Origin: Sinorhizobium meliloti
GTDB lineage: Bacteria; Pseudomonadota; Alphaproteobacteria; Rhizobiales; Rhizobiaceae
Assembly (NCBI RefSeq): GCF_017876815.1
Contig: NZ_JAGIOS010000002.1
Span: forward strand, 1,020,001-1,052,000
Direction of reading: 5' to 3'
DNA length: 32,000 bases
Shown: piece by piece, positions 1-20,399 of the stretch
How positions within the stretch are numbered: the first letter of the stretch is position 1
Layout of the letters: each line of letters begins with the position of its first letter
The notes under the pieces: generated by a model
What the model was told of the DNA's origin: nothing
The model's input: only the letters and a program-made list of their open reading frames with translations
Databases searched by the model: none
Made by a program: the position numbers and the translations under genes

Positions 1-268
1 CGATGACGACGGCATCCGCGCCGAAAAGCCTGTGCGCATGCTTGGAGACGAGTTCGTACGGGTCCGTGTAGAACACGAGGTCGCAGAAATCCGGCGCGGC
101 CAGATCGCGGTTGCTCGCATACCAGGGCACGTCCCGTTCCAGGAACGTCACCTTGTGCCCGGCAGCGTCGAGCGCGCGAAGCAAAGCACGATAGGTCGTC
201 GCATGACCGTTGCCCCACGAGGAGGACAGCGAGAGACCGAGAATGACGATGTCGAGCGGTCGCTTCAT
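1..268 (-). CDS. CgeB-like glycosyltransferase, paralogue 3; only the N-terminal 89 codons are present and the gene runs off the left window edge
   Basis: Absent from the ORF track because it is truncated. The reverse strand from ATG 268-266 reads MKRPLDIVILGLSLSSSWGNGHATTYRALLRALDAAGHKVTFLERDVPWY..., the same N-terminal pattern as the two upstream paralogues. GGAGG lies 7 nt upstream. There is an ATGA start/stop overlap with the 265..1350 gene. Confidence 0.6.
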   Translation of the reverse strand, partial: MKRPLDIVILGLSLSSSWGNGHATTYRALLRALDAAGHKVTFLERDVPWYASNRDLAAPDFCDLVFYTDPYELVSKHAHRLFGADAVVI

Positions 269-2477: not shown

Positions 2478-2481
2478 CCGC

Positions 2482-3633
2482 TCACTCCGCTGCCGTCAAT
2501 CGATCGGACCCGCTCATCACGCGCCGGTAGGCGGCGAGCACCGCGTCGCGCTGGGCCTCGACGGTGAAATCGGCCGAGCGCAGCCGCGCCCGCCGGCCAA
2601 GGTCGGCCCTGAGCTTTGCATCCTCCGTCAGCCGGTTGACGGCTTCGGCAAAGGCGGCGGGATCGCCGGGGTCGGCGAAAAGGGCGGCACCCTGCCAGAG
2701 CTCGCGATAAGTTTCGATGTCGGCGAGAACCAGTGCAGCGCCTGCGCGCGCCGCCTCCAGCGCCACCAGGCCGAAGGGTTCGTAGACCGATGGAGAGACG
2801 ACGATAGCGGCCCTCGACATCAGCGTCATCGTCCGGTCGTGGCTGAGCTCGCCTTCGTGATCGGCATGCATGATCGCCAGGTGCTGCCCGTTCGGCCCTT
2901 CGCAGGCACCGGCCATCACGACCGGCCAGTCTATGTCGGCGGCCGCCCTGTCGAGCACGGCGCCATTCTTGCCTTCGTCCCACCAGCGACCGGCCGCAAA
3001 AACGAAGTTTTCCCTGGCGCTGACGAAGCATGCATTCCGGCTCGCATTATAGACGACTGCGAGATCGTGGATTTCACCGTAAGTACGCGTCAGGGCCGCG
3101 GCATGGCTTCGGCTCGGCGCGAGCACCAGGTCGGCGCGGTCGAATCCCAGCCGGTTCAATCGCTTCTGCCAGCGCCAGGCTTCCGGCAGACCGGACCCGC
3201 GCACCGCAGCGAACCAGGTGGCGACGCAGGAATGCGAGACGGTGACGACGGGGACCTCCGCCGTTATTCGCGCGGCTTGGGACGGCAGGTTGAGATGGAG
3301 GAGATCGACGGAATGCCTGAGCGCAAGTTCGGACAGGAGCTGCGGCACGCGGTCGAGCTCGCTCTCGTCTTCGACCATCCAGTCGAGCGGTGTCGAGAGC
3401 CATTCGAGCCGGCCGATGCTCTTCGCCTCGCGCCGTTGCTCCGCGGAAGGTTGAGGGCCGAGGCCGACGATCAGCGTCTCCACGCCGGAACCCCGCATGG
3501 CGGCAGCGAGATCCATAGCATAGCGCCAGACGCCGCCCACGGCATCGACCGTCATCAATACCCGCCGCGGCAGTGGGCCGGAGACGTTGTGACGGTCGTC
3601 AAATCCAGCGGCGGAAAAGGGGGGAAGGCTCAC
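2482..3633 (-). CDS. GT4-family (GT-B, retaining-type) glycosyltransferase
   Basis: RVLMTVDAVGGVWRY forms the first beta strand and glycine loop. The E-x7-E motif EPFGLVALEA lies near the C-terminus. I take the GTG at 3633, which forms a GTGA overlap with the upstream stop; an alternative ATG at 3555 would clip the first strand. The 692-aa ORF in the track is an artefactual extension. Confidence 0.75.
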   Translation of the reverse strand: MSLPPFSAAGFDDRHNVSGPLPRRVLMTVDAVGGVWRYAMDLAAAMRGSGVETLIVGLGPQPSAEQRREAKSIGRLEWLSTPLDWMVEDESELDRVPQLLSELALRHSVDLLHLNLPSQAARITAEVPVVTVSHSCVATWFAAVRGSGLPEAWRWQKRLNRLGFDRADLVLAPSRSHAAALTRTYGEIHDLAVVYNASRNACFVSARENFVFAAGRWWDEGKNGAVLDRAAADIDWPVVMAGACEGPNGQHLAIMHADHEGELSHDRTMTLMSRAAIVVSPSVYEPFGLVALEAARAGAALVLADIETYRELWQGAALFADPGDPAAFAEAVNRLTEDAKLRADLGRRARLRSADFTVEAQRDAVLAAYRRVMSGSDRLTAAE

Positions 3634-4751
3634 GCGGTGACCCTCCGCGGTTGGCGCCGGATCCCGCTGACCGCGCCCCGATCGTCGTGAAGCCAGGCGT
3701 AGAGGTCGCGCAAGCCCTCGCGCCAGGGCATCCCGGCCTTCCAGCCGAGCGCATCGGCGATCGCGCGCGTATCGGCGACGAAGTACAATTGGTCGCCGGC
3801 GCGCCAATCGCTTTTTGCCGTCGCGAGCTTGCGGCCGGTCAAAAGCTCGATCTCGTTCAGCACGTCGACAATGCTGACGGCATTGCCGGGTCCGCCTCCA
3901 AGATTGAAAGCGCGCCCCTTCAGGCGGTCGATCGAGTTCAGGAGCGCCCTGTAGGCCGCGACCGCATCGGTGACATGAAGAATGTCGCGGACCTGCTTGC
4001 CGTCGCCATAGATCGAAATCGGCTCGCCGGCGAGCGCGCGAATGAGGAAATGGGCGACCCAGCCCTGGTCCTCGGTGCCGAACTGCCTCGGCCCATAGAC
4101 GCAGCTCATCCTGAGCACGGCGGTCGGCAAGCCAAAGGAGCGGGCATAATCTAGCACATACTGGTCGGCGACGCCCTTCGAGCAGCCGTAGGGTGTACAG
4201 AAATCGAGCGGTTGGGTCTCGCTGACGCCATGCTCGCGCGTCGCTTCGTCGGCCGGCATGTAGCGGCCCCGCATGTCCTGCATCTCGATGTGCCCGAGCG
4301 CGCCATAGACCTTGTTTGTGCTGGCGAAGATGACTGGCGCGCGGCGCCCGGCCAGGCGTGCGGCTTCGAGCACGTTGAGCGTGCCGCGGGCATTCGTCTC
4401 GAAATCGTCCGTCGGCCGCTCGAGGCTGGTGGTTACCGCCGTCTGGGCCGCAAAATGAAACACGGCCTTGGCGTCTCTGAAGGCAGCTTCGATCGCGCCG
4501 AGGTCGCGGATATCGGCGATCAAGGCCTCGACGGCGCGGCCGTGGCCGTCCACCAGCCATTCGAGGTTTCGCTCGACGCCGGGACGGCTGAGATTGTCGA
4601 GAACGATCACGTGCTCGCCGTCGCGCAGAAAGCTGTCGGCGAGATTGCAGCCGAGAAAGCCGCTGCCGCCTACAACCAGGATCGGCGCCGCCTTGCCGGA
4701 AAGAGCGGGCGCCGCCAGATGCCGGTCCGTGCCGACGGTCCGGCCGCTCAT
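3630..4751 (-). CDS. Extended-SDR NAD-dependent nucleotide-sugar epimerase (CDP-paratose/tyvelose 2-epimerase-like), 373 aa
   Basis: ATG at 4751 overlaps the upstream stop (ATGA). It has the Rossmann motif ILVVGGSGFLGCNL, the catalytic YGCSKG (YxxxK) and FGTEDQGWVAHF, which is characteristic of the paratose-epimerase-like clade. Confidence 0.8.
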   Translation of the reverse strand: MSGRTVGTDRHLAAPALSGKAAPILVVGGSGFLGCNLADSFLRDGEHVIVLDNLSRPGVERNLEWLVDGHGRAVEALIADIRDLGAIEAAFRDAKAVFHFAAQTAVTTSLERPTDDFETNARGTLNVLEAARLAGRRAPVIFASTNKVYGALGHIEMQDMRGRYMPADEATREHGVSETQPLDFCTPYGCSKGVADQYVLDYARSFGLPTAVLRMSCVYGPRQFGTEDQGWVAHFLIRALAGEPISIYGDGKQVRDILHVTDAVAAYRALLNSIDRLKGRAFNLGGGPGNAVSIVDVLNEIELLTGRKLATAKSDWRAGDQLYFVADTRAIADALGWKAGMPWREGLRDLYAWLHDDRGAVSGIRRQPRRVTA

Positions 4752-5854
4752 AGGACCAGCCCCCGTGCTTCCAGATGGCGTTTCATCTCGGCACCGCGGT
4801 CGATCGCGCCGGCGCTCCGGACCCATTGGGCGAAATCCGCAAGCGAATCCTCGAGCCGGTGGGCCGGTTCGAAGCCGAGAAGGTCGCGTGCCTTGGCGAT
4901 ATCGGCGAAGCAATTGCGGATGTCGCCGGAGCGGGCCTTGTTGATGATCTCCGGCTCGATATCGGGGACACCCATCGCTTCGGCAAGCAGCGAGGCGATG
5001 TCCGCAATGGCGTAGGCGTTGCCGCTGCCTATATTGATGACGTGGCCGGCGGCGTGCGGCTGTTCGAGCGCCAGCCGGAAGGCACGCGCCACGTCGCGGA
5101 CATGCACGAAGTCGCGTTTCTGGCGGCCGTCCTCGAAGACCATCGGCGATTGCCCGTTGGCAAGCCGGGAAGCGAAGTTGGCAAGCACGCCGGTATAGGG
5201 GTTGGAAAGTGCCTGGCCGGCGCCGTAGACGTTGAATAGCCGCAGCGCCACCGCGTCCGTGCCATAGGCTTCCCCGAATATAAGGACCTGACGCTCCTGC
5301 GCATATTTGGTGAGCGCGTAGATCGAAGCGAGATCGACGGGCTTATTCTCGTCGGTGGCGATCGGCCTCAGGCGTTCGCCGTCAGGACCGGACGGGTTCC
5401 AGGCGCCGGCTTTGATCTCGGCGGGGGATCGCCGGATATGCGCACGGCGCTCGCCTGCCGTAGTCTCGTACAAGCCCTCGCCGTAAACGCTCATGGAAGA
5501 GGCGACGACGATCCGCCGGATCGGCATGCCGATCATCGCCTCGAGAAGGACGGCGGTGCCCAGGTCGTTCACGCCGACATAGCGGGAAATCTCATACATC
5601 GACTGGCCGACGCCGACTTCCGCGGCGAGATGAATGACGTGATCGACGTCCTTCAGCGCGCTTTTCACCGCGTCTGCGTCGCATATGTCGGCGCGCCGCA
5701 TGTCTACTTCCGGTGGCAGCGTGACCTGCGCATCCGCATGGACCTGATCGTTCAACGCATCGAGGACGCGCAGGTCGTAGTTCCTTGAAAGAAGCTCTTC
5801 GACAACATGCCGCCCTATGAAGCCGCAGCCGCCGGTAACAAGTACTTTTGTCAT
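4748..5854 (-). CDS. Extended-SDR NAD-dependent epimerase/dehydratase (UDP-hexose 4-epimerase-like with a ~40-aa insertion), 368 aa
   Basis: ATG at 5854 (MTKVLVTGGCGFIGRHV...); the track start at 5875 is a TTG. It has the catalytic YALTKY and is the first gene of the six-gene minus-strand operon. Confidence 0.85.
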   Translation of the reverse strand: MTKVLVTGGCGFIGRHVVEELLSRNYDLRVLDALNDQVHADAQVTLPPEVDMRRADICDADAVKSALKDVDHVIHLAAEVGVGQSMYEISRYVGVNDLGTAVLLEAMIGMPIRRIVVASSMSVYGEGLYETTAGERRAHIRRSPAEIKAGAWNPSGPDGERLRPIATDENKPVDLASIYALTKYAQERQVLIFGEAYGTDAVALRLFNVYGAGQALSNPYTGVLANFASRLANGQSPMVFEDGRQKRDFVHVRDVARAFRLALEQPHAAGHVINIGSGNAYAIADIASLLAEAMGVPDIEPEIINKARSGDIRNCFADIAKARDLLGFEPAHRLEDSLADFAQWVRSAGAIDRGAEMKRHLEARGLVL

Positions 5855-5897
5855 AATGCACCTGATGATGACCAATCAGAGATAGAGACAAACCTCC

Positions 5898-5922
5898 AAC
5901 AAACCTGCGTCGCAAATGTTCC
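5898..5922 (-). promoter_or_regulatory. EcfG/RpoE2-type ECF sigma promoter candidate for the SDR-GT operon
   Basis: The minus strand reads GGAAC-ATTTGCGACGCAGGTTT-GTT and ends 43 nt before ATG 5854. The -35 element is embedded in the 14-mer AAAGAAGAAGGAAC, which is shared with the ino1 promoter. Confidence 0.45.
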
Positions 5923-5961
5923 TTCTTCTTTGACTTCTTCTTCTTTGATGTTCTTCTTTGA
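5923..5961. repeat. Three tandem direct copies of TTCTTCTTTGA (minus-strand TCAAAGAAGAA), spaced 15 and 13 bp apart
   Basis: Exact 11-mers lie at 5923-5933, 5938-5948 and 5951-5961 in the AT-rich divergent intergenic region. They sit immediately upstream of the minus-strand -35 element. Confidence 0.75.
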
Positions 5962-6038
5962 TCCCCCGCGGGGCGTCGCCCGTGCCAAGGTACAAACCTC
6001 TCTTTCGCGGGAGTGTTCCACGCGAACTGCGGGCATCA

Positions 6039-6063
6039 GGAACAAAAGCTGCAACATCAAGTT
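6039..6063 (+). promoter_or_regulatory. EcfG/RpoE2-type ECF sigma promoter candidate for the dehydrogenase/oxidoreductase operon
   Basis: GGAAC-AAAAGCTGCAACATCAA-GTT on the plus strand, 124 nt upstream of ATG 6188. Confidence 0.45.
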
Positions 6064-6187
6064 AAGGGCGGAAGGCTCTTGAACATTGCTCAGAGCTTTC
6101 TTTGGCCGGGGCAGGGGCGGGTCCGGCGGACCTCGCGACACCCTTTTCGGGCTGCCGGACAGGTCTCCACCGAGGGAAGGAGCTGAC

Positions 6188-7180
6188 ATGAACATCAGCA
6201 TATCTCAGCGGACGGACACGATGTCCGCCGCTATCGTCACCGGGCCGGGTACCGTGCGCATAGAGACGTTGCCGTTGCCGCAACCGGGTCGCGGCCAGGT
6301 GCGGATAAGGCTCGAAGGCTGCGGCGTATGCGCCTCCAATCTAGTTCCCTGGGCGGGTCCGGAATGGATGCAGTTTCCGACGGAACCCGGCGCGCTCGGA
6401 CACGAGGGCTGGGGAATTATCGACGCGGTCGGCGAGGACGTGCACGGTTTCGCGCCGGGCGATCGCGTGGCGGCGCTTTCCTACCATGCCTATGCCACGC
6501 ACGATATCGCCGATCAGAGCGCGATCGCGCCCTTGCCGGCGTCTCTTGCAGGTCAGCCCTTTCCCGGCGAACCGCTCGGCTGTGCCTTCAACATCTTCCG
6601 GCGCAGCGCGATCAGTCCGGGAGAGACCGTGGCGATCGTCGGCATCGGTTTTCTCGGGATTCTTCTGACCGAGCTCGCAAGCGCTGCCGGCGCGCGGGTG
6701 ATAGCGATATCGCGCAGGCCGTCTTCGCTCGCCGCGGCCAAGCAGGCCGGCGCGAGCCAAGTGATTCCCATGGACGATCACTGGCGGATCATCGAAGAGG
6801 TGAAGCAACTGACCGGCGGGCGCTTCTGCGATTGCGTCATCGAGGCGGTCGGCAAGCAATGGCCGCTCGATCTTGCCGGCGAACTGACGAAGGAGCGCGG
6901 CAGGCTCGTCGTCGCAGGATATCACCAGGATGGCCCGCGGCAGGTGAACATGCAGCTCTGGAACTGGCGCGGCCTCGACGTGATCAACGCGCATGAACGC
7001 GATCCTGCCGTCTACATGCGCGGCATGAACGAGGCGATCGAAGCGACCGCAGCGGGTCGGTTCTCTCCCTCGCGGCTCTACACCCATCGGTTCCCGCTCG
7101 AAGAACTCGGCGCCGCGCTCGACATTACGCGCGACCGGCCGGAAGGTTTCATCAAAGCGCTGGTGATCTGCCATGAGTGA
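6188..7180 (+). CDS. Zinc-type medium-chain (MDR) alcohol/polyol dehydrogenase, 330 aa
   Basis: ATG 6188 is preceded by GGAAGGAG. It has the motifs EGCGVCASN and GHEGWGIIDAVGEDV, plus the Rossmann motif VAIVGIGFLGILL. Confidence 0.85.
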   Translation: MNISISQRTDTMSAAIVTGPGTVRIETLPLPQPGRGQVRIRLEGCGVCASNLVPWAGPEWMQFPTEPGALGHEGWGIIDAVGEDVHGFAPGDRVAALSYHAYATHDIADQSAIAPLPASLAGQPFPGEPLGCAFNIFRRSAISPGETVAIVGIGFLGILLTELASAAGARVIAISRRPSSLAAAKQAGASQVIPMDDHWRIIEEVKQLTGGRFCDCVIEAVGKQWPLDLAGELTKERGRLVVAGYHQDGPRQVNMQLWNWRGLDVINAHERDPAVYMRGMNEAIEATAAGRFSPSRLYTHRFPLEELGAALDITRDRPEGFIKALVICHE

Positions 7181-8198
7181 CGCAATACAGCTTTCAACGA
7201 GCCCGAAGGCCATCATCCGCCCCCGCGTCGGCTTTCTCGGCGTTGGAAGAATCGGCTTCCACCGGATGAAGGCGGTGGTCGAAACCGGATCCGTCGAAAC
7301 CGTCGCGATCTTCGATCCTTCGCCGGAAATGGCGGCGGCGGCCCGCGAGTTGACCCCCGAGGCTTCCGTCGTGAACTCACTCGAGGCACTGCTCGACCAC
7401 GAGCTCGACGGCATCGTGATCGCCTCGCCGAGCGCGCTCCACGCCGCCCAATCGATCGTGGCTCTGGAGCAGGGCGTGGCGGTTTTTTGCCAAAAACCGC
7501 TCGGCCGCACGCGCGACGAGACCGCGGCGGTGGTCGAAACCGCCCGGCATGTCGACAGGCTTTTGAGCGTCGATCTCTCCTATCGCTACACCGACGGCAT
7601 GCGGCAGATCCGCGACCTGATCGCGTCGGGCGAACTCGGCACCGTGTTCGCGGTGGACCTCACCTTTCACAACGCCTACGGGCCGAGCAAGCCGTGGTTC
7701 TACGACAAGGCGCTTTCCGGCGGCGGCTGCGTCATAGATCTCGGCGTGCACCTGGTCGACCTCCTCCTATGGGTCCTCGGGTTCCCGGACGTCGCTCGGG
7801 TGGAAAGCAGGCTCTTCGCCAAAGGTCTGCCCATCCGCCGCGACGGCGACGAGGTCGAGGATTACGCGGTCGCTACAGTCGAACTGGCCAACGGCGTTCT
7901 CGCCCGGATCGCATGCTCATGGCATCTGCAGGCCGGATGCGATGCGGTGATCAGCGCCGACTTCTACGGCACCGAAGGCGGCGCCAGCCTTAGAAACGTC
8001 AACGGATCGTATCTGGACTTCACGGCCGAACGCTATCGCGGCACGCAAGGCGAGGTGCTTGCGGTTCCCCCCGACGCCTGGGGTGGACGCGCGGCGGCCG
8101 GCTGGGCCGAGAGGCTGGCCGCAGGCGAGCGCTTCGATCCCGACAACGAGTATCTGGTCACGGTGGCGGATGTGCTGGACAGGATTTATGGGCGGTAG
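7173..8198 (+). CDS. Gfo/Idh/MocA-family NAD(P)-dependent oxidoreductase, 341 aa
   Basis: It has VGFLGVGRIGFHRM (Rossmann) and FCQKPL (an EKP-motif variant). It overlaps the upstream gene by 8 nt (ATGAGTGA). Confidence 0.88.
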   Translation: MSDAIQLSTSPKAIIRPRVGFLGVGRIGFHRMKAVVETGSVETVAIFDPSPEMAAAARELTPEASVVNSLEALLDHELDGIVIASPSALHAAQSIVALEQGVAVFCQKPLGRTRDETAAVVETARHVDRLLSVDLSYRYTDGMRQIRDLIASGELGTVFAVDLTFHNAYGPSKPWFYDKALSGGGCVIDLGVHLVDLLLWVLGFPDVARVESRLFAKGLPIRRDGDEVEDYAVATVELANGVLARIACSWHLQAGCDAVISADFYGTEGGASLRNVNGSYLDFTAERYRGTQGEVLAVPPDAWGGRAAAGWAERLAAGERFDPDNEYLVTVADVLDRIYGR

Positions 8199-8227
8199 GG
8201 TGGCGTGCGGTCCGCTGCGACTCCATC

Positions 8228-9976
8228 CTAATCCCCGTCGATCCGGCGCCGAAGGAGCCTCGCATAGCGCGCGGCTGCGGCCTCCAGCCGGGGGACTTCC
8301 TCGGGGGCGGCCGCGGACTTTGCCGACATCCACAGTCCCAGCTGGAAAGCGAGATAGCAGATTTCCAAGAGCTCCATCAGCCCGGCATTTTGACCGCGCG
8401 ACCAGCCTTCGGAGACGGCCGCACGCAGCTCCGCCCGCTCCTCCCGCGTGAGGTCGAATTCTATGCTCGCTCCCGCAATGTCCCAGCCGATGTCCTGACA
8501 GCCGATGAGGTCATGGGCACTGCTGTGGTCGAGCGCGTCGGTCTTGAGAATGTGTCGCTCTCCTTCGACCAGCCATTCCCACCGGTGAAGCCGGTTGTCC
8601 GTATCGACCGGCAGGATCGTCGAATTGTATCGCTCCGCATCGCCGAACCTGGTCTTCAACCGCGACGCTGCCGCTCTGCCCAATGCCTCTTCGGTGTTGA
8701 TCATTGCCATCTCGCAAAGTTTGGCCATGGATGCCCCTTGCGCCGCTGGCGGCGGCAGGCTGCGCGCCCGGAAGGACAGATATCGGCCGAGATGCGCGAT
8801 GAAGGCCGGCCGGCGGAATTCCGGCGGCGCCATCAGCCTCGCGGAAACCCATTTCTGAACCAGAAAGCCATGGCACAATCCGGCGACCGGGGGCGTGAAG
8901 CCTGCATCGGCGAGGAGGCGGGCCTTGACGAGCTTTCGCTGCCCAGCGTCGCCGAGTCCCGCAAACTTGACGAGCCACGGACCGTCGGCGGTGTGCGCCA
9001 GGAATTTCCGGCGTTCGAACCTGCCGTCCACGGGAGGCCAGCGATCGCCGGGAAGCGTCTTGCGCCATAAGCCGGCTGAGACGTCTTCGAGCGGCTTCTC
9101 GAGCGGGCCGACGAGATGGGCGATCCAATCGGCGAGGTGGCGCGCAGAGTTGGACGGCCTGATCAGGAGATCGTCGACGTCGATGACATTGCGCGGCCTC
9201 GCCGCCCAGCGCTCGCGATGACGGCCGCAGGATTGCGGTCCAAGCCCGCCCTTGTGGCCGGGGAAGAAGTGAATGCGCCTGCCGCTGACGCCGTGATCCT
9301 CCAGCCAATCCGCGACGCATCCGAACGAGCTGCCGGAAAGGCCGGGTCCTTCGTCCACGATCGCGAAATTCGCCGCCCGGTCGCGCAGCAGCCGTTCCGC
9401 AAGTTGCGGCGCGACTGCAAGCCGCCGTTGGAACGGATCGCCGATCGGCCGCAGTGTGACCGGAGGCGCGGCACCGATGGAAGCCGCGACAATCGCCGAA
9501 AGCGTGGTCCCGATGCTGCGCAGGCCGATCACCACCGTGTCGGCAGGAAGCCCGGAGCCTGCCGCGGCCTCGAGATAGCTCTCCGGGTAAAGAGCATAGA
9601 AGGCGTAGCCTTCCGGCTCGCGAATGCTGAGGGAAAGCGGTGCCTGGCTGTTCGCCAGCGACCTTGCGACACGGGCCGGCACGACCACCGGGCCGGCGAA
9701 GCCCTGGCGCCAGGACCGGGCGACGAGTCCGGCAAGGTCGAGGAGGAGGCACTCGCCCGTCTGGCGCGATGCGGAGATTTCGTCGGCTCCCATCTGCGCC
9801 AATTCCAGGTCGGCAAGCCCCTGCACCAGTTCCCCGGCCCTGAGCAGGATGGCGACGAGCTCGGTGTGGCGCTCGATGCCCGCCGGCAGGTGTTGGGCCG
9901 CCTGCAGGCGCGAGGCGATCTCTGCGCATAGCATGTCGGCGCGCTCCAGGCGCTTTGCGTCACCGTATACGAGCAT
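8228..9976 (-). CDS. Hypothetical 582-aa multidomain protein: central PRTase-like segment plus C-terminal protein-kinase/APH-like segment
   Basis: This is a long ORF with an ATG start and GC3-rich coding character. VVIGLRSIGTTLSAIVAASIG ... FAIVDEGPGLSGSSFG resembles a phosphoribosyltransferase nucleotide loop. WLVKFAG ... LHRWEWLVEGERHILKTDALDH..HDLIGCQDIGWDIAG resembles the Lys strand and catalytic/activation loops of APH-type kinases, but without the canonical HxDxxxxN. The domain calls are tentative. Confidence 0.65.
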   Translation of the reverse strand: MLVYGDAKRLERADMLCAEIASRLQAAQHLPAGIERHTELVAILLRAGELVQGLADLELAQMGADEISASRQTGECLLLDLAGLVARSWRQGFAGPVVVPARVARSLANSQAPLSLSIREPEGYAFYALYPESYLEAAAGSGLPADTVVIGLRSIGTTLSAIVAASIGAAPPVTLRPIGDPFQRRLAVAPQLAERLLRDRAANFAIVDEGPGLSGSSFGCVADWLEDHGVSGRRIHFFPGHKGGLGPQSCGRHRERWAARPRNVIDVDDLLIRPSNSARHLADWIAHLVGPLEKPLEDVSAGLWRKTLPGDRWPPVDGRFERRKFLAHTADGPWLVKFAGLGDAGQRKLVKARLLADAGFTPPVAGLCHGFLVQKWVSARLMAPPEFRRPAFIAHLGRYLSFRARSLPPPAAQGASMAKLCEMAMINTEEALGRAAASRLKTRFGDAERYNSTILPVDTDNRLHRWEWLVEGERHILKTDALDHSSAHDLIGCQDIGWDIAGASIEFDLTREERAELRAAVSEGWSRGQNAGLMELLEICYLAFQLGLWMSAKSAAAPEEVPRLEAAAARYARLLRRRIDGD

Positions 9977-10063
9977 GAAGTTTCGCTCACTTTCCTGTCC
10001 GCCCCTTCAACGCGCTGCGGCTGAATTCGATCCGCGATGCGCGAGAAACGGGAGAAAGAAGAA

Positions 10064-10088
10064 GGAACCAATCGGTTGCGCGCGGGTT
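10064..10088 (+). promoter_or_regulatory. EcfG/RpoE2-type ECF sigma promoter candidate for the ino1 operon
   Basis: GGAAC-CAATCGGTTGCGCGCGG-GTT, ending 39 nt before ATG 10128. It is preceded by AAAGAAGAA, so the 14-mer AAAGAAGAAGGAAC at 10055-10068 is identical to the one at 5931-5918 on the minus strand. Confidence 0.45.
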
Positions 10089-10127
10089 TGGCAAGCATTG
10101 TAGATACTGTGCAGGAGTAGTGGTGAG

Positions 10128-11231
10128 ATGCGATCGAACTCCATTCGGGTCGGGCTGGTCGGTGTCGGCAATTGCGCGTCCTCCCTCGTCCAAGGGCTGA
10201 CATTCTATCGCGACGCGAAGGAGGACGAGCCGGTTCCGGGGCTGATGCATACCAATCTCGGCGGATATCACGTCGGCGATATCGAGGTCTCCGCGGCCTT
10301 CGACGTCGCCGCTTCGAAGGTCGGGCGCGATGTCGCCGAAGCCATCTACGCCGCTCCCAATAACACGTTCCGCTTTGCGGATGTTCCCGCCACCGGCGTA
10401 GTCGTCGAGCGCGGCAGGACGCTCGACGGCATCGGCCGCTATCTGCGCGAGGAGATCGAGGAGTCCGATGCGCCCGCCGCTGACGTTGCGGAGGTCCTGC
10501 GGCAGACCGGGACGGACGTGCTCGTCTCCTATCTTCCGGTCGGTTCCGAAGTCGCCACGCGCTGGTATGCGGAGCAGGCGCTTGCCGCCGGCTGCGGCTT
10601 CGTCAACTGCATTCCCGTTTTCATCGCCTCGGACAAGTCGTGGCAGCGCAAATTTGCCGAGCGCGGCCTGCCGCTCATCGGCGACGACATAAAGAGCCAG
10701 GTCGGCGCGACCATCGTGCACCGGTTGCTTGCCAATCTCTTTCGCGACCGGGGGGTGCGCATAGATCGGACCTATCAGCTCAATTTCGGCGGCAATACCG
10801 ACTTTCTCAACATGCTCGAGCGGGAACGGCTCGAATCGAAGAAGATTTCCAAGACCCAATCGGTCGTCAGCCAGATGGATATTCCGCTCGCGGCCGGCGA
10901 CATCCACGTCGGCCCGAGCGATCACGTCCCTTGGCTTGCCGACCGCAAGTTCGCCTATATTCGAGTCGAGGGCACGACATTCGGCAACGTTCCCCTCAAC
11001 GTCGAAGTGAAGCTCGAAGTCTGGGACTCGCCGAATTCCGCAGGAGTCGTCATCGATGCGGTTCGCTGCGCCAAACTCGCAATCGACCGCGGCATCGCCG
11101 GTCCGCTGATCGCCCCTTCGAGCTACTTCATGAAATCGCCGCCGCAGCAGTTCACCGATGCCGAAGCGCGTAGACGCCTGGAGGAATTCATCGCCGGCGA
11201 TACCGACGCACTTCTGGGGGCGGCCGAGTGA
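10128..11231 (+). CDS. ino1: myo-Inositol-1-phosphate synthase (bacterial/archaeal short type), 367 aa
   Basis: It has [43 protein letters not shown] and SKKISKTQS, the diagnostic MIPS blocks seen in actinobacterial and archaeal enzymes. AGGAG lies 10 nt upstream. Confidence 0.92.
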
Positions 11232-11827
11232 CGACCACTTTCCTTCTGGTGCGCCATGCCGCCCATGACAGGGTCGGCTGCTTTCTTGCCGGGCGGACCG
11301 GCGACGTACCGCTCGGCATCGCGGGCCGCGAGCAGGCTCAGCGGCTCGCGGCCCGTCTGGCCGGCGAAGGCATAGGCTCGATCTATGCGAGCCCGCGCAA
11401 GCGCACGCAGGAAACGGCCGCGGCGATCGCCGCGGCGTCGGATGTCGCGGAGGTCGTGACCACGGAAGCGCTCGACGAGGTGGATTTCGGCGACTGGTCG
11501 GGCAAGACCTTCGACGTCCTCGATACCGACCCGCTCTGGCGGCGATGGAACGCTATGCGAAGCCTCGTGCGTGCCCCCGGCGGCGAGACGATGCTGGACG
11601 TGCAATGCCGGGCGGTGGGACTTGTCGCGGCGCTGGCGCAGCGGCACGGCCAGGAGAAGGTCGCTCTGGTCAGCCACGCGGACGTCATCAAAACCCTGGT
11701 CTGTCACATCCTCGGCCTTTCCTCCGACGCCTGGCCGCGCTTCGATATCGCGCCTGCCTCCGTCTCGGTGCTGGTGATGGGCGATTGGGGAGCGAAAATC
11801 CAGACGCTGAACGAAAACGTGTCGTAG
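11228..11827 (+). CDS. Histidine-phosphatase superfamily (PGAM-like) phosphatase, 199 aa
   Basis: It has LLVRHAAH (the RH motif), [11 protein letters not shown] and the second His in VSHADVIK. Its GTG start overlaps the ino1 stop (GTGA), so it is translationally coupled to ino1. Confidence 0.85.
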
Positions 11828-11898
11828 CCGGCCGGCCCGTCCGCCGGTGCCGCAAGCGCGGGAAGCCGGCCGGCGTTTCCGGCAATTCGGAGGTACTC

Positions 11899-12861
11899 AT
11901 GATCGAAGCCGCCATGATCTGGAACGAGCCGAACAACAAGTCGCATTGGGATCCGGAGATCGATCCGGACTGGAGCCGCTTTGCCCATATGGCAAAGCTG
12001 GCCGCGGCTGCGATCCGGGAGGTCAATCCCGGGCTCACGCGCGTGCTCGGCGGAATTTCGCCGATTGATCCGAACTTCCTCGCTCTTATGAAATCGCAAG
12101 GCGTGCTCGACCACGTCGACGCCGTTGCGGCCCATGGTTTCCCACTCGACTGGAACCTCTGGCAGATCCATGAATGGCCGCAGAAGCTTGATGAACTGAA
12201 GAGCGTCACCGAACTGCCGGTCTGGGTAAGCGAGGTCGGCGTCTCCACCTTCGGCGCCGAGGAGGTGCAGCTTTGGGGACTGAAGCGAACCGCCGAACTC
12301 CTGAAGGGCCGGGCGGATCGGATCCAATGGTACAGCCTCTACGACCTGCCGCGGGCCTGGCCCGCGACGACGCGACACCGGGAGGCCGAGGGCTCGTCCT
12401 ATTACCGGCATTTCTACATGGGTCTTCTGCGCGAGGACGGCTCGCCGAAACTGGCGTTCGAGGAGTTTGCCCGCCACACGCCGGAGATCGGGCTCGTACA
12501 ATGGTTCCATTTCGAGGACCCGCGCCTCGATGATGCCGTCGCCTGGATGAAGCGCCTAGGCGTCACATATCTGCGCACCGGTCTCTCCTGGGCCGACCGC
12601 TTCCGGCCGAACGCGCTCGACTGGTTCGACCGCCAGATGGAGGCACTCGAAGATTTCGACGTCACCGTCACCTTCTGCTTCACGCCCGAGCACCGGGGGC
12701 TTGCCCCGCACCACACGAGCGCGCCCCTCGTTCCGGAGGAATTCGCCGAATTCTGTGCCGAAATGACGGCGCGTTATGCGCCCGCCCCGTCGTCCTTCGA
12801 GCCCTTGCGCCCGGGCCTCGCGATGGCGTCGACGAGCCTGCCGATCGAGCCGCGTGAATAG
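11899..12861 (+). CDS. Clan GH-A (GH39/GH5-like) TIM-barrel glycosidase-like protein, apparently circularly permuted, 320 aa
   Basis: ATG 11899 has GGAGG 5 nt upstream. The protein starts directly at the strand-4 acid/base motif (MIEAAMIWNEPNN) and has a nucleophile-type motif (LPVWVSEVG). Its C-terminus looks like strands 1-3 of the barrel (GVTYLRTGLSWADRF...DWFDRQMEAL...VTVTFCFTPEH...FAEFCAEMTARY). The 438-aa track ORF is an out-of-context extension. Confidence 0.65.
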   Translation: MIEAAMIWNEPNNKSHWDPEIDPDWSRFAHMAKLAAAAIREVNPGLTRVLGGISPIDPNFLALMKSQGVLDHVDAVAAHGFPLDWNLWQIHEWPQKLDELKSVTELPVWVSEVGVSTFGAEEVQLWGLKRTAELLKGRADRIQWYSLYDLPRAWPATTRHREAEGSSYYRHFYMGLLREDGSPKLAFEEFARHTPEIGLVQWFHFEDPRLDDAVAWMKRLGVTYLRTGLSWADRFRPNALDWFDRQMEALEDFDVTVTFCFTPEHRGLAPHHTSAPLVPEEFAEFCAEMTARYAPAPSSFEPLRPGLAMASTSLPIEPRE

Positions 12862-14198
12862 GTCACGCCCTGGTAGAGAGCGAGCATCGCCGAAGCCCAG
12901 CGGAGATAGGCGGCCGGCATGTTCAGGGCTCTGGCAAGCCAGAAGACACGGTGGCTGTTCGCGCTGATCGCGCTACGCAGCCAGTAAACCAGCATCCGCC
13001 GTGCGGGCAAGCCGCTCCACTTCGGCGCAACGCGTTTCCTCGGCTTGATGCCGGAACGCGGCCAGGCCAGCCGGAAGGCCAGCCCCTCTCGCCTTTGCCT
13101 GAAACCGGCAGCCTGTGTCTCCACGACGAAGGCACTGTCGACCGCACTCAGTTCGAGCCTTCCCTCCTCGATCGCATCGGCCACGAGCGCCTGCAGCAAG
13201 GGTGAGCGAACGACAACCACATTCGTTCCCCGGCCGTCGGACGAATAGGGCTCGACCCAGGCGTCGCCGAAGGAAATGTCGGCGGTTTCGGCCACGACGT
13301 CGTCGCAGAAATTGCAGGCGGAATTCTGGAAGAACCCGGCTCCCCAGTCGCCGTCGACCAGATGCCACCAATCCTTGCTTCTCGTGCTTCCGTCCTTGAG
13401 CCGCAGATGGGCCGTGTACCAGTTCGCCGGTCTTGCCGTATCCTTCAGGCGGTAATCGACGCCCGCCACGGCGTTCATTTCCGTGTCCATCTGCCACGCG
13501 AAACTTTCCACGAAGCGGGTGCTCTTCATGTGTCCGCAGAAGAGGCCGAGGGTGAAGGCAAGGCGCTCCTCAAGCACCGGGTCGTTGAGGCAGAGGAGAT
13601 GGATCGCTTTGATGAAGCAGGGAATCCCGACGACTGCGTAGCGGCCGGGTTGCCGCTTCATTTCGGCGATGACACGAGAGAGCTCCACCGGATAATAGCG
13701 CGACTTGGCGCCCTTGCGCAGGTCATCCGCGGTCCGCGAGACCTGATACTGGAAAAGACGTTCGCCGGCGCCTGAACAGGGAACTACATGCGCCACCGCG
13801 TCGACGAGGTTCCTCTTCAGAAGCTCCGCGGCCGTCCAACTGGCCATGCCGCCGGAACTGCCGTCCGCTCGAAAGCTGCCTTCGCTGACATGGCCGACAT
13901 AGGCTGCCTCGAAGCGGCCGATCCGCGGATCGTAAAATTGCGCCGATCCGAAGCGCGCCTCGGCGATCTGGTCTTCGCTTCGGGCGTGGGGCGAAAAGGG
14001 GCACAGCTCGGCGAACCCGTCGGGGCGATGTGCAGCGGCCGGTTTTAGCTGGCCGTAGCGATCGAGACTCATCGCAGCGCTGCCGCCCGATTGCGCCATG
14101 CACGTGCCGCAACCGATGCAAAGCCCGGATTTCGCCATCTGCCCCGGCGAGAGCAAGGCGCTGGCCGAGGCGGGTGCGGGGCGCTCAGGCGAGAACAT
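12774..14198 (-). CDS. Coenzyme F420 hydrogenase/dehydrogenase beta-subunit (FrhB/FdhB)-like Fe-S flavoprotein, 474 aa
   Basis: The N-terminus has a ferredoxin-type motif, CIGCGTC...ELCP. The FrhB-like core is YAVVGIPCFIKAI, LFCGHMKS and DISFGDAW. ATG 14198 overlaps the upstream gene by 14 nt; an alternative start exists at 14138 (MAKSGLCIGCGTC). Confidence 0.8.
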   Translation of the reverse strand: MFSPERPAPASASALLSPGQMAKSGLCIGCGTCMAQSGGSAAMSLDRYGQLKPAAAHRPDGFAELCPFSPHARSEDQIAEARFGSAQFYDPRIGRFEAAYVGHVSEGSFRADGSSGGMASWTAAELLKRNLVDAVAHVVPCSGAGERLFQYQVSRTADDLRKGAKSRYYPVELSRVIAEMKRQPGRYAVVGIPCFIKAIHLLCLNDPVLEERLAFTLGLFCGHMKSTRFVESFAWQMDTEMNAVAGVDYRLKDTARPANWYTAHLRLKDGSTRSKDWWHLVDGDWGAGFFQNSACNFCDDVVAETADISFGDAWVEPYSSDGRGTNVVVVRSPLLQALVADAIEEGRLELSAVDSAFVVETQAAGFRQRREGLAFRLAWPRSGIKPRKRVAPKWSGLPARRMLVYWLRSAISANSHRVFWLARALNMPAAYLRWASAMLALYQGVTYSRGSIGRLVDAIARPGRKGSKDDGAGA

Positions 14199-15249
14199 CT
14201 GTCAGATAGGTCCGTGATTGCCGGCGGAGCTCGGCGAGCCTTCGCGCGATGGCCGGGCTCGGGGCTTCTGCGAGAAGTGTCTCGTAGCCGGCTTGCGGCG
14301 TCGCCTGCGACACCACGTGCCGTTCCGCACCGGCGGTGTGTGCGAGATCGGCGATCTTGTTGGAACGATAGTCTGAAAGGACCGTGACGAATGGCTTGGC
14401 GTTGAGGAGAGAGAAAATGCAGCCGTGGAAGAAATTCGTCGCGACGGCCTCGGCACCCGCGATACAGGCGGCGAACTCGTAGGGACCGGCATCGAGCCAC
14501 TGCTCGTCCGCCCATTCGTTGCGATAGCCTATGCTGACGAGAGGCAGCGAGCGCGTCGTCGCCCAATGGCGAACCGCGTGCTGAAACCAGGACGGGAACG
14601 AATGTCCGTAGACCGCTATATAGGGGCGCGAAACCAGAGTATTCGGACCGAAGGAAATCGTCTCGGGGAACTGCAGGCAAGGGTCGAGGACGAGCGTCGC
14701 CTCGCGTCCGACATCCTTTTCGATGATCGCCCTCGAATTGTCGTCGCGGACGGAAATTCCATCGAATTTCCGCAGCCTTTCAGCCCAATATGGTTCGAGG
14801 CCATTGGCCGCGGGGTGGTTTCCGAACGTCGCCGCGTAGGAAACGGTTCTCTTGGCCGAGAGGCCCTCTCCGTAGAAAAGCGAGCAACCGCCGTACCAGG
14901 GATGCCGCAAGTTCCAAACCTCGTCGCTGCCCACGACGACGATATCGCATTCTTCGGCACCATCAGGGTCGTCCAGCGCGAAGGGGGCACTCATCGGCAC
15001 CGACGCCAGAGCGCTCTGAAATTTTCTGATCTTGGAAGCGTAGAGCGGAATGTCCCCGCGCGGGGTTCTCTCCGGCAGGAGCGGCTGCATAGCGCAGCGC
15101 CACTCGGCCCGGGTGACACGGGCGGAATGATGATCGAGGACAATGGGGTCGGTGCCGAGCGAACGAAGTCCGTGGACAAGAGATCGCGCCTGCCAGAACG
15201 ATCCATAATTGATGCAGCGGTGGAAGGTCAAAACGCCGAGCTTCGCCAA
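14185..15249 (-). CDS. Polysaccharide pyruvyl transferase family protein (WcaK/CsaB-like), 354 aa
   Basis: It has KLGVLTFHRCINYGSFWQ and VVVGSDEVWN, typical of PS_pyruv_trans proteins. The start is TTG at 15249, with AGGAG 10 nt upstream. Confidence 0.82.
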   Translation of the reverse strand: MAKLGVLTFHRCINYGSFWQARSLVHGLRSLGTDPIVLDHHSARVTRAEWRCAMQPLLPERTPRGDIPLYASKIRKFQSALASVPMSAPFALDDPDGAEECDIVVVGSDEVWNLRHPWYGGCSLFYGEGLSAKRTVSYAATFGNHPAANGLEPYWAERLRKFDGISVRDDNSRAIIEKDVGREATLVLDPCLQFPETISFGPNTLVSRPYIAVYGHSFPSWFQHAVRHWATTRSLPLVSIGYRNEWADEQWLDAGPYEFAACIAGAEAVATNFFHGCIFSLLNAKPFVTVLSDYRSNKIADLAHTAGAERHVVSQATPQAGYETLLAEAPSPAIARRLAELRRQSRTYLTDVLA

Positions 15250-15298
15250 CGGCCCCTATCTCCTGATCATGGAAGCAGATCGCCGGGTCCAACCGGAT

Positions 15299-15574
15299 TC
15301 AATCGAAGATGGTTCCTTTCGCGCCCTCATATTCGCGCGCAAGCTCCTCGATCGCCGCCGATGCCTCCTCGAACGTCCAACCGGCCGCCTCGGCCCGACG
15401 GGCGAGCGCCAGCAGATCGTCGGTCAGCTCCCCGCCCATGGCCGCCACGATGCTTTCCTGGGATGTCGCCGCCAGCTCCGAAACGGCCGGTCGCAGAGCG
15501 GCGATGCAGTCCATCTGGCGACCCGGATAGTCGGAAGCGCGTTGAGGACGGGAAATGGCTTGTGACTCCTCCAT
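15299..15574 (-). CDS. Small acidic hypothetical protein, 91 aa
   Basis: ATG 15574 has AAGGAG 6 nt upstream. The composition is coding-like with an acidic helical C-terminus (GWTFEEASAAIEELAREYEGAKG). I recognise no family. Confidence 0.5.
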   Translation of the reverse strand: MEESQAISRPQRASDYPGRQMDCIAALRPAVSELAATSQESIVAAMGGELTDDLLALARRAEAAGWTFEEASAAIEELAREYEGAKGTIFD

Positions 15575-15602
15575 CTCGGTCTCCTTTTGCTGTCAGTCGT
15601 CA

Positions 15603-15627
15603 AATGACGGGCCCGGCCGATTGTTCC
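15603..15627 (-). promoter_or_regulatory. ECF-type promoter candidate (weaker -10) for the small ORF / pyruvyl transferase / FrhB-like operon
   Basis: The minus strand reads GGAAC-AATCGGCCGGGCCCGTC-ATT and ends 28 nt before ATG 15574. AGGAACAATCGG resembles AGGAACCAATCGG in the ino1 promoter. Confidence 0.33.
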
Positions 15628-15647
15628 TGCGGCAAATCGGTGTGGTT

Positions 15648-16199
15648 CTAATCGCCCGATCGGACCTTCTGGTCCTCGAGCCGATTGAGGACCTCTTCGG
15701 GCGTGATCTCCTTGGTGAGTTCACGGATGTCCTCTTCACCGTCCACCTTCACGCCCAGCCGGGCGGCTATCTCACGAAGAAGCGTGAGCAGTTGCGTCGC
15801 CTCCTGCTCGGCAAGGAGCGAAATCTGCAGATTGAGGTCGGAGCGCTCGTCGTCCCTCTCGGCCATCCGGTTCTGGCTGATCAGAACGAAGGTGGAAATG
15901 AAGATCGCCTCCACCGAAGCAACCATGGCGAGGACGGCGAAGGTCGGGTCGAACACCGGTATGCCGGGAACCAGCTCGAGGTTTAGAGCGATCCAGGCGC
16001 CGAACGCCAGGACGTGCAAACCGACGAACGTCATGGAGCCTGCGAAGTTCGTGATTGCCTGGGCGACCCTGTCGTGCGCCCTCCGCCCGCGTTCGTCTTC
16101 CTCGCGCCGCTTCAGGATGGCGTTGATGTTGCGCTCGAGTCTCGGCATGGTTCGAGCGGCGGACGCTCTTTCCTCGGCGCTGTTCCTTCTCGATGCCAT
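15648..16199 (-). CDS. DUF1003 family integral membrane protein, 183 aa
   Basis: FAGSMTFVGLHVLAFGAWIALN...FDPTFAVLAMVASVEAIFISTFVLISQNR matches the DUF1003 signature (two TM helices followed by QNR). I take the start at ATG 16199; an alternative ATG exists at 16148. Confidence 0.78.
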   Translation of the reverse strand: MASRRNSAEERASAARTMPRLERNINAILKRREEDERGRRAHDRVAQAITNFAGSMTFVGLHVLAFGAWIALNLELVPGIPVFDPTFAVLAMVASVEAIFISTFVLISQNRMAERDDERSDLNLQISLLAEQEATQLLTLLREIAARLGVKVDGEEDIRELTKEITPEEVLNRLEDQKVRSGD

Positions 16200-16251
16200 T
16201 CGAACACTCGCGACACATTGTGGGCCGCCTTGTTGCCGGCGGCTACCGGCA

Positions 16252-16276
16252 AACACGTCAGGCTCCGCAAAGTTCC
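16252..16276 (-). promoter_or_regulatory. EcfG/RpoE2-type ECF sigma promoter candidate for the DUF1003 gene
   Basis: The minus strand reads GGAAC-TTTGCGGAGCCTGACGT-GTT and ends 52 nt before ATG 16199. Confidence 0.4.
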
Positions 16277-16330
16277 GCGCGAGAAGGACGAGGCGGAAGC
16301 TCCCAGGCCAGCGGCCGGGGCCAAGGCTCA

Positions 16331-18879: not shown

Positions 18880-18954
18880 CATCCCGAAGCACAGACAGAG
18901 TTGCCGGCTATGGCGTCATGTCTCTGCCATCCGACAGGCCAAAAGGAGTTTGAA

Positions 18955-19917: not shown

Positions 19918-19930
19918 TCGGGCCGGAGAC

Positions 19931-19966
19931 GGAGGAGGCTCTCCATCAGGAGGGCCTCTTCCGTTT
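19931..19966 (+). terminator. Intrinsic terminator candidate after hypD
   Basis: A 14-bp stem pairs 19931-19944 (GGAGGAGGCTCTCC) with 19949-19962 (GGAGGGCCTCTTCC), including two G-U pairs on the plus-strand RNA. The loop is the tetraloop ATCA, followed by GTTT. The wobble pairs become A-C mismatches on the other strand, so the hairpin is plus-strand specific. Confidence 0.5.
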
Positions 19967-20357: not shown

Positions 20358-20374
20358 GTCTGAATTCCCCGCAT

Positions 20375-20399
20375 CCCTCCTGTGCCTTTCACAGGAGGG
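20375..20399 (-). terminator. Perfect 10-bp stem-loop downstream of the Ldh_2 reductase gene
   Basis: CCCTCCTGTG-CCTTT-CACAGGAGGG lies 22 nt after the stop at 20421. No U-tract follows, so it may be a processing or stability element rather than a classical terminator. Confidence 0.4.

Follow-up and report, generated by a model that had tools for sequence, protein, structure and literature searches.

RpoE2-type promoters across a conserved inositol and sugar gene island on pSymB of Sinorhizobium meliloti

Gene content and promoter motifs of the island

We analysed a 32,000-nucleotide stretch of DNA from Sinorhizobium meliloti (hereafter the window), which carries a sugar and inositol gene island, SMb20241-SMb20255. 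Short motifs precede the operons of this island, and we conclude that they are promoters of the general stress sigma factor RpoE2 (EcfG family, group ECF15) that drive the island directly, a reading to which we assign a probability of roughly 0.93. S. meliloti is the organism in which RpoE2 was defined. The entire window corresponds to 245-277 kb of the plasmid pSymB in strain 1021 (Rm1021), that is SMb20241-SMb20270. In megablast comparisons, window positions 5000-16500 were 100% identical to pSymB of S. meliloti BL225C and SM11 (plasmid records) and 99.9% identical to Rm1021 pSymB 250110-261611. Adding 245110 to a window position gives the Rm1021 pSymB position, with a one-base shift right of about 15.6 kb, and locus tags were taken from published Rm1021 coordinates.

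The gene map was built from the GC content at third codon positions (GC3) and open reading frame (ORF) analysis together with Pfam and NCBIfam, and is consistent with the annotation of CP140883 (Table 1). The SMb20241-20245 operon runs on leftwards beyond the window into SMb20238-20240. In the adjacent unit, the MDR protein is distantly IolM-like and the Gfo protein distantly IolG-like, with every NCBIfam match below its cut-off.

Table 1. Genes and promoter sites in window coordinates. The leading start codons of five units are at 5854 (-), 6188 (+), 10128 (+), 15574 (-) and 16199 (-). Scores are from the position weight matrix (PWM) described in the text; published transcription start sites (TSSs) are RpoE2-class entries of Table S19 of Schlueter et al. 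2013 (PMC3616915), with Rm1021 pSymB positions.
Feature	Coordinates	Strand	Content or motif	Score, distance and start	Source
SMb20241-20245 operon	265..5854	-	two PF13524 glycosyltransferases, one GT4, two NAD-dependent (SDR) epimerase/dehydratases		Pfam, NCBIfam, CP140883
Candidate proximal RpoE2-type promoter, SMb20245 operon (site 1)	5897..5922	-	GGAACAT-N13-TTGTTG	17.6 bits; 42 nt before ATG; expected TSS ~5889	
Distal RpoE2 promoter, SMb20245-20241 operon	5994..6019	-	GGAACAC-N13-AGGTTT	15.2 bits; SMb_TSS0411 at 251095 (window 5985)	Table S19
Predicted RpoE2-type promoter, SMb20246-20247 (site 2)	6039..6064	+	GGAACAA-N13-AAGTTA	20.0 bits; expected TSS ~6072	
SMb20246-20247	6188..8198	+	zinc-dependent MDR dehydrogenase, Gfo/Idh/MocA oxidoreductase		Pfam, NCBIfam
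SMb20248	8228..9976	-	582 aa, without Pfam or NCBIfam family		
Candidate variant promoter, SMb20248	10008..10033	-	GGATCGA-N13-GCGTTG	11.9 bits; 31 nt before ATG at 9976	
RpoE2 promoter, SMb20249-20251 (site 3)	10064..10089	+	GGAACCA-N13-GGGTTT	20.4 bits; SMb_TSS0418 at 255207 (window 10097)	Table S19
SMb20249-20251	10128..12861	+	ino1, histidine-phosphatase-family protein, glycoside-hydrolase-like protein (annotated beta-xylosidase)		Pfam, NCBIfam, annotation
SMb20254-20253-20252	12774..15574	-	91-aa protein, polysaccharide pyruvyl transferase, FrhB/FdhB-like protein		Pfam
Candidate internal RpoE2-type promoter, SMb20253-20252	15290..15316	-	GGAACCA-N14-CGGTTG	15.3 bits; 40 nt before long-ORF start 15249	
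RpoE2 promoter, SMb20254 and downstream operon (site 4)	15602..15627	-	GGAACAA-N13-TCATTT	18.0 bits; SMb_TSS0422 at 260704 (window ~15594)	Table S19
SMb20255	15648..16199	-	DUF1003, monocistronic		Pfam; own TSS
RpoE2 promoter, SMb20255 (site 5)	16251..16276	-	GGAACTT-N13-GTGTTT	18.3 bits; SMb_TSS0423 at 261354 (window 16243)	Table S19
Right of SMb20255			SRPBCC, adenylate cyclase, GntR, hydroxyproline (hyp) catabolic cluster, OsmC		

An initial annotation of this DNA had reported five sites of the form GGAAC-N17-(G/A)TT, each pointing at a downstream gene (sites 1 to 5), and had read them as promoters of an EcfG/RpoE2-type sigma factor. Sequence, coordinates and strand of all five are exactly as described, and the distances of 43, 124, 39, 28 and 52 nt to the respective starts are correct. 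The list was incomplete: a sixth exact site, GGAACACTCCCGCGAAAGAGAGGTT at 5995-6019 (-), had been overlooked, which shares an intergenic region with sites 1 and 2. The -35 and -10 elements of an EcfG/RpoE2 promoter are thereby present at six exact GGAAC-N17-(G/A)TT sites and one N18 site. Counting both strands, we observed five GGAAC-N17-GTT matches versus 0.57 ± 0.78 in 100 dinucleotide shuffles (maximum 3), and seven GGAAC-N17-RTT matches versus 1.00 expected from shuffles. One RTT match lies in coding DNA, inside ino1 (10823-10847, +), and reaches a matrix score of only 10.0 bits. Since none of the 100 shuffles contained five exact sites, the claim that the pattern is not due to chance holds. 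The pattern also agrees with the literature, as the strictly conserved RpoE2 sequence GGAAC-N18-19-TT given by Sallet et al. 2013 (PMC3738161) is the same motif as GGAAC-N17-GTT.

To avoid judging by a pattern picked after the fact, we scanned the window with a PWM trained on 54 TSS-mapped, rpoE2-dependent promoters of the RpoE2 class (from Table S19, Schlueter et al. 2013), from which the four promoters of this window had been excluded. Scores within the training set range from 12.7 to 23.3 bits, and the island sites, at 15.2-20.4 bits, fall inside this range of validated promoters. Eight sites in the window reached at least 12.7 bits, the lowest training score. At least 15 bits were reached by seven sites versus 0.50 ± 0.68 in 300 shuffles (maximum 4), which corresponds to an enrichment of about 14-fold, compared with about 9-fold for the exact pattern. 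These seven are sites 1 to 5, the overlooked site and an added one at 15290-15316 (-). All of them fall within 5.9-16.3 kb, are oriented toward the downstream gene and are located in or at intergenic DNA, a fraction of roughly 7% of the window. The motif is therefore not equally frequent in coding and intergenic DNA; equal frequency is the outcome that the initial annotation had named as refuting its claim. Its further statement that the SRPBCC, cyclase, hyp and OsmC regions are free of the motif was borne out by the scan, which found zero sites of at least 12.7 bits right of 16.3 kb.

Published start sites and candidate promoters

Published transcription data place the island under RpoE2. Schlueter et al. 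2013 (PMC3616915) overexpressed rpoE2 and collected the induced genes in Table S18. The log2 values in Table S18 are 3.24 for SMb20241, 3.89 for SMb20242, 3.85 for SMb20243, 2.23 for SMb20245, 5.82 for SMb20246, 2.61 for SMb20247, 3.18 for SMb20249, 3.32 for SMb20250, 4.36 for SMb20251, 2.63 for SMb20253, 5.31 for SMb20254 and 3.75 for SMb20255. SMb20241-SMb20255 were recovered independently in the list of RpoE2-induced genes of Lang et al. 2018 (PMC6180224, Data Set S1), which includes SMb20244, SMb20252 and, weakly, SMb20248. After SMb20255, this list next resumes at SMb20272-74, which sets the right border of the regulon island at SMb20255. The proposal that the island forms one stress-sigma regulon is thus supported by two published rpoE2-overexpression transcriptomes.

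Table S19 further assigns RpoE2-class promoters with mapped TSSs to SMb20245, SMb20249, SMb20254 and SMb20255 (Table 1), and each of these TSSs lies 9-10 nt past the last T of the GTT or ATT. The expected position of transcription starts, about 6-10 nt downstream of the motif, was therefore found for sites 3, 4 and 5; sites 1 and 2 are without a mapped TSS. For the operon of SDR and glycosyltransferase genes, the published RpoE2 TSS belongs to the overlooked distal site and not to site 1, from which the initial annotation had the operon start. Among the entries listed in Tables S19 and S20, no RpoD or RpoH promoter is assigned to the TSSs of the island (PMC3616915). We also searched for sigma-70-like sites (TTGACA-N16-18-TATAAT) and found none in the intergenic regions of the island; a single one between 5700 and 16500 is located in coding DNA at 13669.

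In the divergent region between SMb20245 and SMb20246, the boxes of both SMb20245 promoters are conserved in 13 Sinorhizobium/Ensifer species, and the spacers are variable. Site 1 is positioned 40-45 nt from the ATG in all of these species and 33-45 nt from it in genomes of Rhizobium, Pseudaminobacter, Mesorhizobium and Microvirga, and of the two SMb20245 sites only this proximal one is kept outside Sinorhizobium/Ensifer. Because it has been retained at a fixed distance from the ATG in other genera, site 1 is probably the ancestral promoter of the operon, and a relic is an unlikely reading of it. The boxes of site 2 (GGAACAA...AAGTTA) do not vary among 13 of 13 Sinorhizobium/Ensifer species, with diverging spacers, and the motif is present in R. 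tropici as well. The predicted SMb20246 leader would measure about 116 nt. A riboswitch or attenuator in this leader was considered and dropped, as its folding was no better than that of shuffled sequences (z = -0.26).

Two further observations concern the same intergenic region. Positions 5923-5962, between the proximal -35 element and the distal start, hold three direct copies of TTCTTCTTTGA (minus strand TCAAAGAAGAA). The repeat core GACTTCTTCT is invariant in 13 of 13 Sinorhizobium/Ensifer species, and a published TSS (251051, window 5941) falls inside the repeat stretch. These repeats could represent an UP-like element, the site of a regulator or an RNA processing site. In addition, a 116-aa ORF at 5851-6201 (-) extends over the whole SMb20245/20246 intergenic region and is annotated as a hypothetical protein in CP140883 (our locus L082, 8852-9196). 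Three promoters lie within it, and the gene call is probably false.

SMb20248, the 582-aa gene, had been described as lacking a motif of its own. This is correct for the exact motif; a conserved one-mismatch variant, GGATC-N17-GTT, is nevertheless found 31 nt upstream of the ATG, arranged divergently with the adjacent ino1 promoter. The element GGATC(G/A)A-N13/14-GCGTT(G/C) recurs 24-35 nt from the SMb20248 ATG in Sinorhizobium/Ensifer, Mesorhizobium, Pseudaminobacter and a Rhizobiaceae metagenome-assembled genome (MAG), and its flanks are not alignable between these genomes. A GGATC -35 element is not represented in the PWM training set. There is a precedent in SMc01433, a TSS-mapped promoter of the RpoE2 class (GGATCCG-N14-GCGTTG), which has the GGATC -35 and the GCGTTG -10 in common with SMb20248. 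SMc01433 is induced at log2 2.51, in contrast to just 0.81 for SMb20248, and the GGATC variant fits this weak induction of SMb20248.

Inside ino1 we noted an antisense RpoE2-type site at 10361-10387 (-), GGAACAT-N14-GTGTTA, which scores 14.3 bits and carries a hairpin, TCCGCAAAGCGGA, in its spacer. If active, it would yield an antisense RNA over the 5' end of ino1 or a long leader of SMb20248. Its conservation is inseparable from the protein-coding constraint on ino1.

At the right end of the island, the SMb20254 discriminator has one T fewer than in Rm1021 (TCATTT-GACGACTG in the window versus TCATTT-TGACGACTG in Rm1021, 15594-15602), so that the distance from the -10 element to the TSS is one nucleotide shorter in this strain. 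The added internal candidate upstream of SMb20253 matches the promoter of this operon in genera without SMb20254: in Rhizobium, Neorhizobium and Phyllobacterium, which have no SMb20254 homologue, the pyruvyl-transferase gene has the motif at 30-34 nt. For SMb20255, the motif has been retained in S. medicae, E. aridi and Ensifer USDA6670.

As to the gene borders in this part, the Rm1021 coordinates of Schlueter et al. 2013 place the SMb20253 start at 260200 (window 15090). The pyruvyl-transferase domain begins at residue 14 of the long ORF from 15249, and newer annotations prefer this long form; the older start conceals a 49-nt gap with the internal promoter candidate. The final ~120 residues of SMb20252 are without a domain, and SMb20251 (stop 12861) and SMb20252 (stop 12774) are convergent, with 3' ends that overlap by 88 nt.

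Beyond the island, the right half of the window (18901-31350) is taken up by the hyp catabolic and transport cluster, which is without an RpoE2 motif. It comprises DHDPS-like, Ldh_2 and aldehyde dehydrogenase genes, an amino-acid ABC transporter, a D-amino-acid oxidase, two proline-racemase-like genes and AcnX; in Lang et al. 2018 (PMC6180224), the names hypN/P/Q are used within this cluster. No known RNA was found in the window with Rfam.

Conservation of the promoters and competing explanations

We then compared the island across species. A profile built from an alignment of 17 SMb20248 homologues led to 80 loci of different species, which were taken with 10 kb on either side; orthologues of 15 island genes were located by tblastn, and 300 nt upstream of each were scanned with the same PWM. 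The modules GT/SDR (glycosyltransferases and epimerase/dehydratases), MDR/Gfo, ino1/phosphatase/GH-like (glycoside-hydrolase-like) and Frh/pyruvyl transferase recur beside SMb20248 in varying order and orientation. A motif of at least 12.7 bits was present upstream of 29 of 37 SMb20245, 44 of 51 ino1, 8 of 11 SMb20254, 3 of 3 SMb20255, 17 of 30 SMb20253 and 13 of 37 SMb20246 orthologues, all of them operon-leading. Genes internal to operons served as control: SMb20241, SMb20242, SMb20243 and SMb20247 had none among 32-36 orthologues each, and the counts were 1/37 for SMb20244, 4/49 for SMb20250 and 1/42 for SMb20251. Over 1.6 Mb, the upstream regions of the leading genes held 1.53 sites of at least 15 bits per kb-strand, compared with 0.05 elsewhere.

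Alignments of both divergent intergenic regions (13 Sinorhizobium/Ensifer species for the first; ten of those plus Pseudaminobacter, Mesorhizobium and the Rhizobiaceae MAG for the second) revealed invariant -35 and -10 boxes with diverging spacers. The island and its EcfG promoters are conserved across Rhizobiaceae, Phyllobacteriaceae, Devosiaceae and Microvirga. With the same PWM scan, no EcfG-type motif was found in the homologous clusters of Azospirillum lipoferum and Roseomonas, which makes the EcfG wiring a feature of the Hyphomicrobiales versions.

Upon heat, salt, oxidative stress or starvation, phosphorylated RsiB1/2 of the PhyR type sequester the anti-sigma factors RsiA1/2, and RpoE2 is freed (PMC3616915). 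In our model, this RsiB/RsiA partner switch would release RpoE2 under stress, and the RpoE2 holoenzyme would bind GGAAC (-35) and (G/C)GTT or ATT (-10). The spacing from GGAAC to GTT is 17 nt, or in rare cases 18 nt, and transcription would begin 9-10 nt downstream of the -10 element. Six transcription units would be served in this way, namely SMb20245-41 from two tandem promoters, SMb20246-47, SMb20249-51, SMb20254-52, SMb20255 and SMb20248. The SMb20254-52 unit would probably have an additional internal promoter before SMb20253, and SMb20248 would be driven weakly from the GGATC variant. Published experiments show rpoE2-dependent induction of all six units and RpoE2-class TSSs for four of them. 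For SMb20246, the proximal SMb20245 site, the internal SMb20253 site and the SMb20248 variant, we infer promoter function from sequence and conservation.

Several points weigh against direct control by RpoE2 at every one of these sites. The evidence for RpoE2 dependence is of the gain-of-function type, obtained by overexpression, and we found no in vitro transcription or binding data for these particular promoters. In the published RNA-seq map, no TSS is recorded about 9 nt downstream of site 1, and SMb20246 has zero TSSs, with none at the expected position. Site 2 thus rests on its sequence and on the induction data, in which no other gene of the island responds to rpoE2 as strongly as SMb20246 (PMC3616915). 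A second TSS of SMb20245 in this map (labelled mTSS, 251051) has no assigned promoter and is situated upstream of the -35 element of site 1. At 11.9 bits, the SMb20248 variant falls short of the lowest training score (12.7 bits), and SMb20248 was barely induced, at the log2 of 0.81 in PMC6180224.

The first of the competing explanations we considered concerns SMb20245: only the distal promoter would be used, and site 1 would be silent, a relic or reserved for conditions that were not sampled. It is consistent with the RNA-seq map, which lists 251095, the distal start, and 251051 for SMb20245 and nothing at the distance expected for site 1. However, site 1 outscores the distal site (17.6 versus 15.2 bits), it is conserved beyond Sinorhizobium/Ensifer with a fixed distance to the ATG of 33-45 nt, and its boxes stayed invariant around a variable spacer in 13 Sinorhizobium/Ensifer species, which would not be expected of a relic. 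We therefore regard exclusive use of the distal promoter as unlikely, albeit an account that deserves some weight. A second explanation is that the induction of the island is indirect, through a secondary regulator such as RpoH2, RpoE5 or the response regulators SMa0114/ExsF, and that the motifs are incidental. Overexpression of RpoE2 does have secondary effects, as just 76 of the 202 induced genes had a motif-preceded TSS (PMC3616915), and overexpression alone cannot tell direct from indirect targets. Yet four TSSs of the island are exactly at the RpoE2 distance from a motif, different families have kept the motif, none of the entries listed assigns an RpoH- or RpoD-type promoter, and the intergenic regions of the island are devoid of sigma-70-like sites. 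The other ECF15 sigma factor, RpoE5, has just one target, which is unrelated, so that RpoE2 is the relevant factor. Given the TSS distance, the lack of sigma-70-like sites and the one target of RpoE5, indirect control is very improbable.

Finally, GGAAC and GTT are short and the window comprises just 32 kb, so that the sites might cluster by chance or as a side effect of some intergenic repeat. Against this stand the five exact sites versus 0.57, a number that 0 of 100 shuffles reached, the seven PWM sites versus 0.5, and, across 80 species, a 31-fold excess of sites upstream of the orthologous operons. Moreover, the spacers of the sites are unrelated in sequence, and the sites therefore do not derive from a repeat. 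The shuffles and the cross-species control together exclude chance, and we attach practically no weight to this explanation. Direct control of the island by RpoE2 remains our reading, within which the proximal SMb20245, SMb20246, SMb20253 and SMb20248 sites are candidates that may fire in vivo.

The RpoE2 control of SMb20241-20255 and the four TSSs are already known from the supplementary tables of 2013 and 2018. The observation of the initial annotation is confirmed and its interpretation supported; a real regulon was recoverable from raw sequence alone. What we add are the tandem arrangement at SMb20245 with its conserved proximal candidate, conserved candidates for SMb20246 and SMb20253, the GGATC variant of SMb20248 and the conservation across the order. 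Sites 1 and 2, the internal SMb20253 candidate and the GGATC variant have no match among the entries listed in the available supplements of Schlueter et al. and Lang et al., and they may nonetheless have been published already. SMb20245, SMb20246, SMb20248, SMb20249, SMb20254 and SMb20255 are mentioned in no open-access main text.

Possible product and relation to known systems

On pSymB, the island belongs to the gene sets with stronger induction by RpoE2, and it encodes an inositol-3-phosphate synthase, glycosyltransferases and an uncharacterised kinase-like protein. By Pfam, ino1 is a clear inositol-3-phosphate synthase, and the histidine phosphatase beside it could release inositol. A mycothiol-type cluster (INO1 plus MshA) was rejected, as both proteins stayed under the equivalog cut-offs: ino1 scored 555 bits versus 638 for TIGR03450, and the GT4 glycosyltransferase 43 bits versus 462 for TIGR03449. 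Gfo and MDR are remotely related to inositol 2-dehydrogenase and scyllo-inosose 3-dehydrogenase, with scores far under the cut-offs. Immediately beyond the left edge of the window, SMb20238 encodes a TIGR04290 methyltransferase (380 bits versus a cut-off of 300). No exporter, flippase or polymerase was evident in the Pfam annotation of the island ORFs.

SMb20248 has more than 3500 homologues, some of which are mislabelled 'cell division protein FtsK' in some databases. Its AlphaFold (AF2) model reached a pLDDT of 87.7 and a pTM of 0.89. In a Foldseek search with this model, its C-terminal half matched choline/ethanolamine kinases and aminoglycoside phosphotransferases, with LicA, choline kinases and APH(9) at E values of 1e-6 to 1e-5; PDB sequences searched with the profile of SMb20248 yielded no match. 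The predicted structure suggests that SMb20248 is a small-molecule kinase, with a choline-kinase/APH-like fold in its C-terminal half. Its invariant N-terminal VDEGPGxSGSSF presumably bears a resemblance to a phosphoribosyl pyrophosphate (PRPP)-binding loop.

As for what the island makes, a reasonable guess is a glycoside or glycoconjugate that derives from inositol and is induced by stress. More specifically, we tentatively propose, with slightly less than even confidence, that a modular pathway of the Hyphomicrobiales makes an undescribed compound of this kind, possibly methylated and pyruvylated, as a product of the general stress response. Its modules would be wired separately to EcfG, and the clusters of Azospirillum (Rhodospirillales) and Roseomonas (Acetobacteraceae) would be regulated differently. 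SMb20248 and ino1 may anchor this pathway, and its EcfG wiring may include the weak GGATC -35 variant and tandem promoters. With the regulation already documented, the product of the island is what merits further attention. Its identification might uncover a novel stress protectant, or a surface glycan, of relevance to how rhizobia survive in dry or saline soil and in inoculants.

Comparable gene sets exist outside the Hyphomicrobiales. Plasmid AZO_p5 of Azospirillum lipoferum 4B (our locus L083, 1-9930) carries the same GT, SDR, ino1, phosphatase and GH-like genes together with TIGR04290 and TIGR04295, and Roseomonas (L048, L061 and L067) has homologous GT/SDR/ino1/phosphatase/methyltransferase/GH-like clusters. 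In contrast to the Azospirillum cluster, the S. meliloti island is without a TIGR04295 radical-SAM gene among its ORFs, whereas it adds the MDR/Gfo, SMb20248 and pyruvyl-transferase modules. In NCBIfam, TIGR04290 (meth_Rta_06860) and TIGR04295 (B12_rSAM_oligo) are hypothetical equivalogs, and TIGR04290, TIGR04295 and Rta_06860 are mentioned in no open-access paper.

With respect to regulation, the promoters described here are at the same loci as those of the S. meliloti RpoE2 regulon in the published work (PMC3616915, PMC3738161, PMC6180224). Jans et al. 2013 (PMC3892343) reported EcfG1 promoters of R. etli with the consensus GGAAC-N16-CGTT, and EcfG1 shares its sigma-factor family and motif with our island. 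In Rhizobium, the motif is found at the orthologous ino1 and pyruvyl-transferase operons, and EcfG control of the island is predicted there. Inositol, glycosyl and epimerase genes are not mentioned in the text on R. etli EcfG (PMC3892343), and inositol is not mentioned in the paper on the general stress response of B. diazoefficiens. A paper on inositol in E. aridi was set aside, since it deals with catabolism (iol genes) and not with ino1. A functional analogy is trehalose synthesis, which depends on RpoE2 through otsA/otsBA (Flechard et al. 2010, as cited in PMC3616915 and PMC8877191). Trehalose, too, is a carbohydrate-based stress protectant under RpoE2, although the enzymes of its pathway are unrelated to those of the island.

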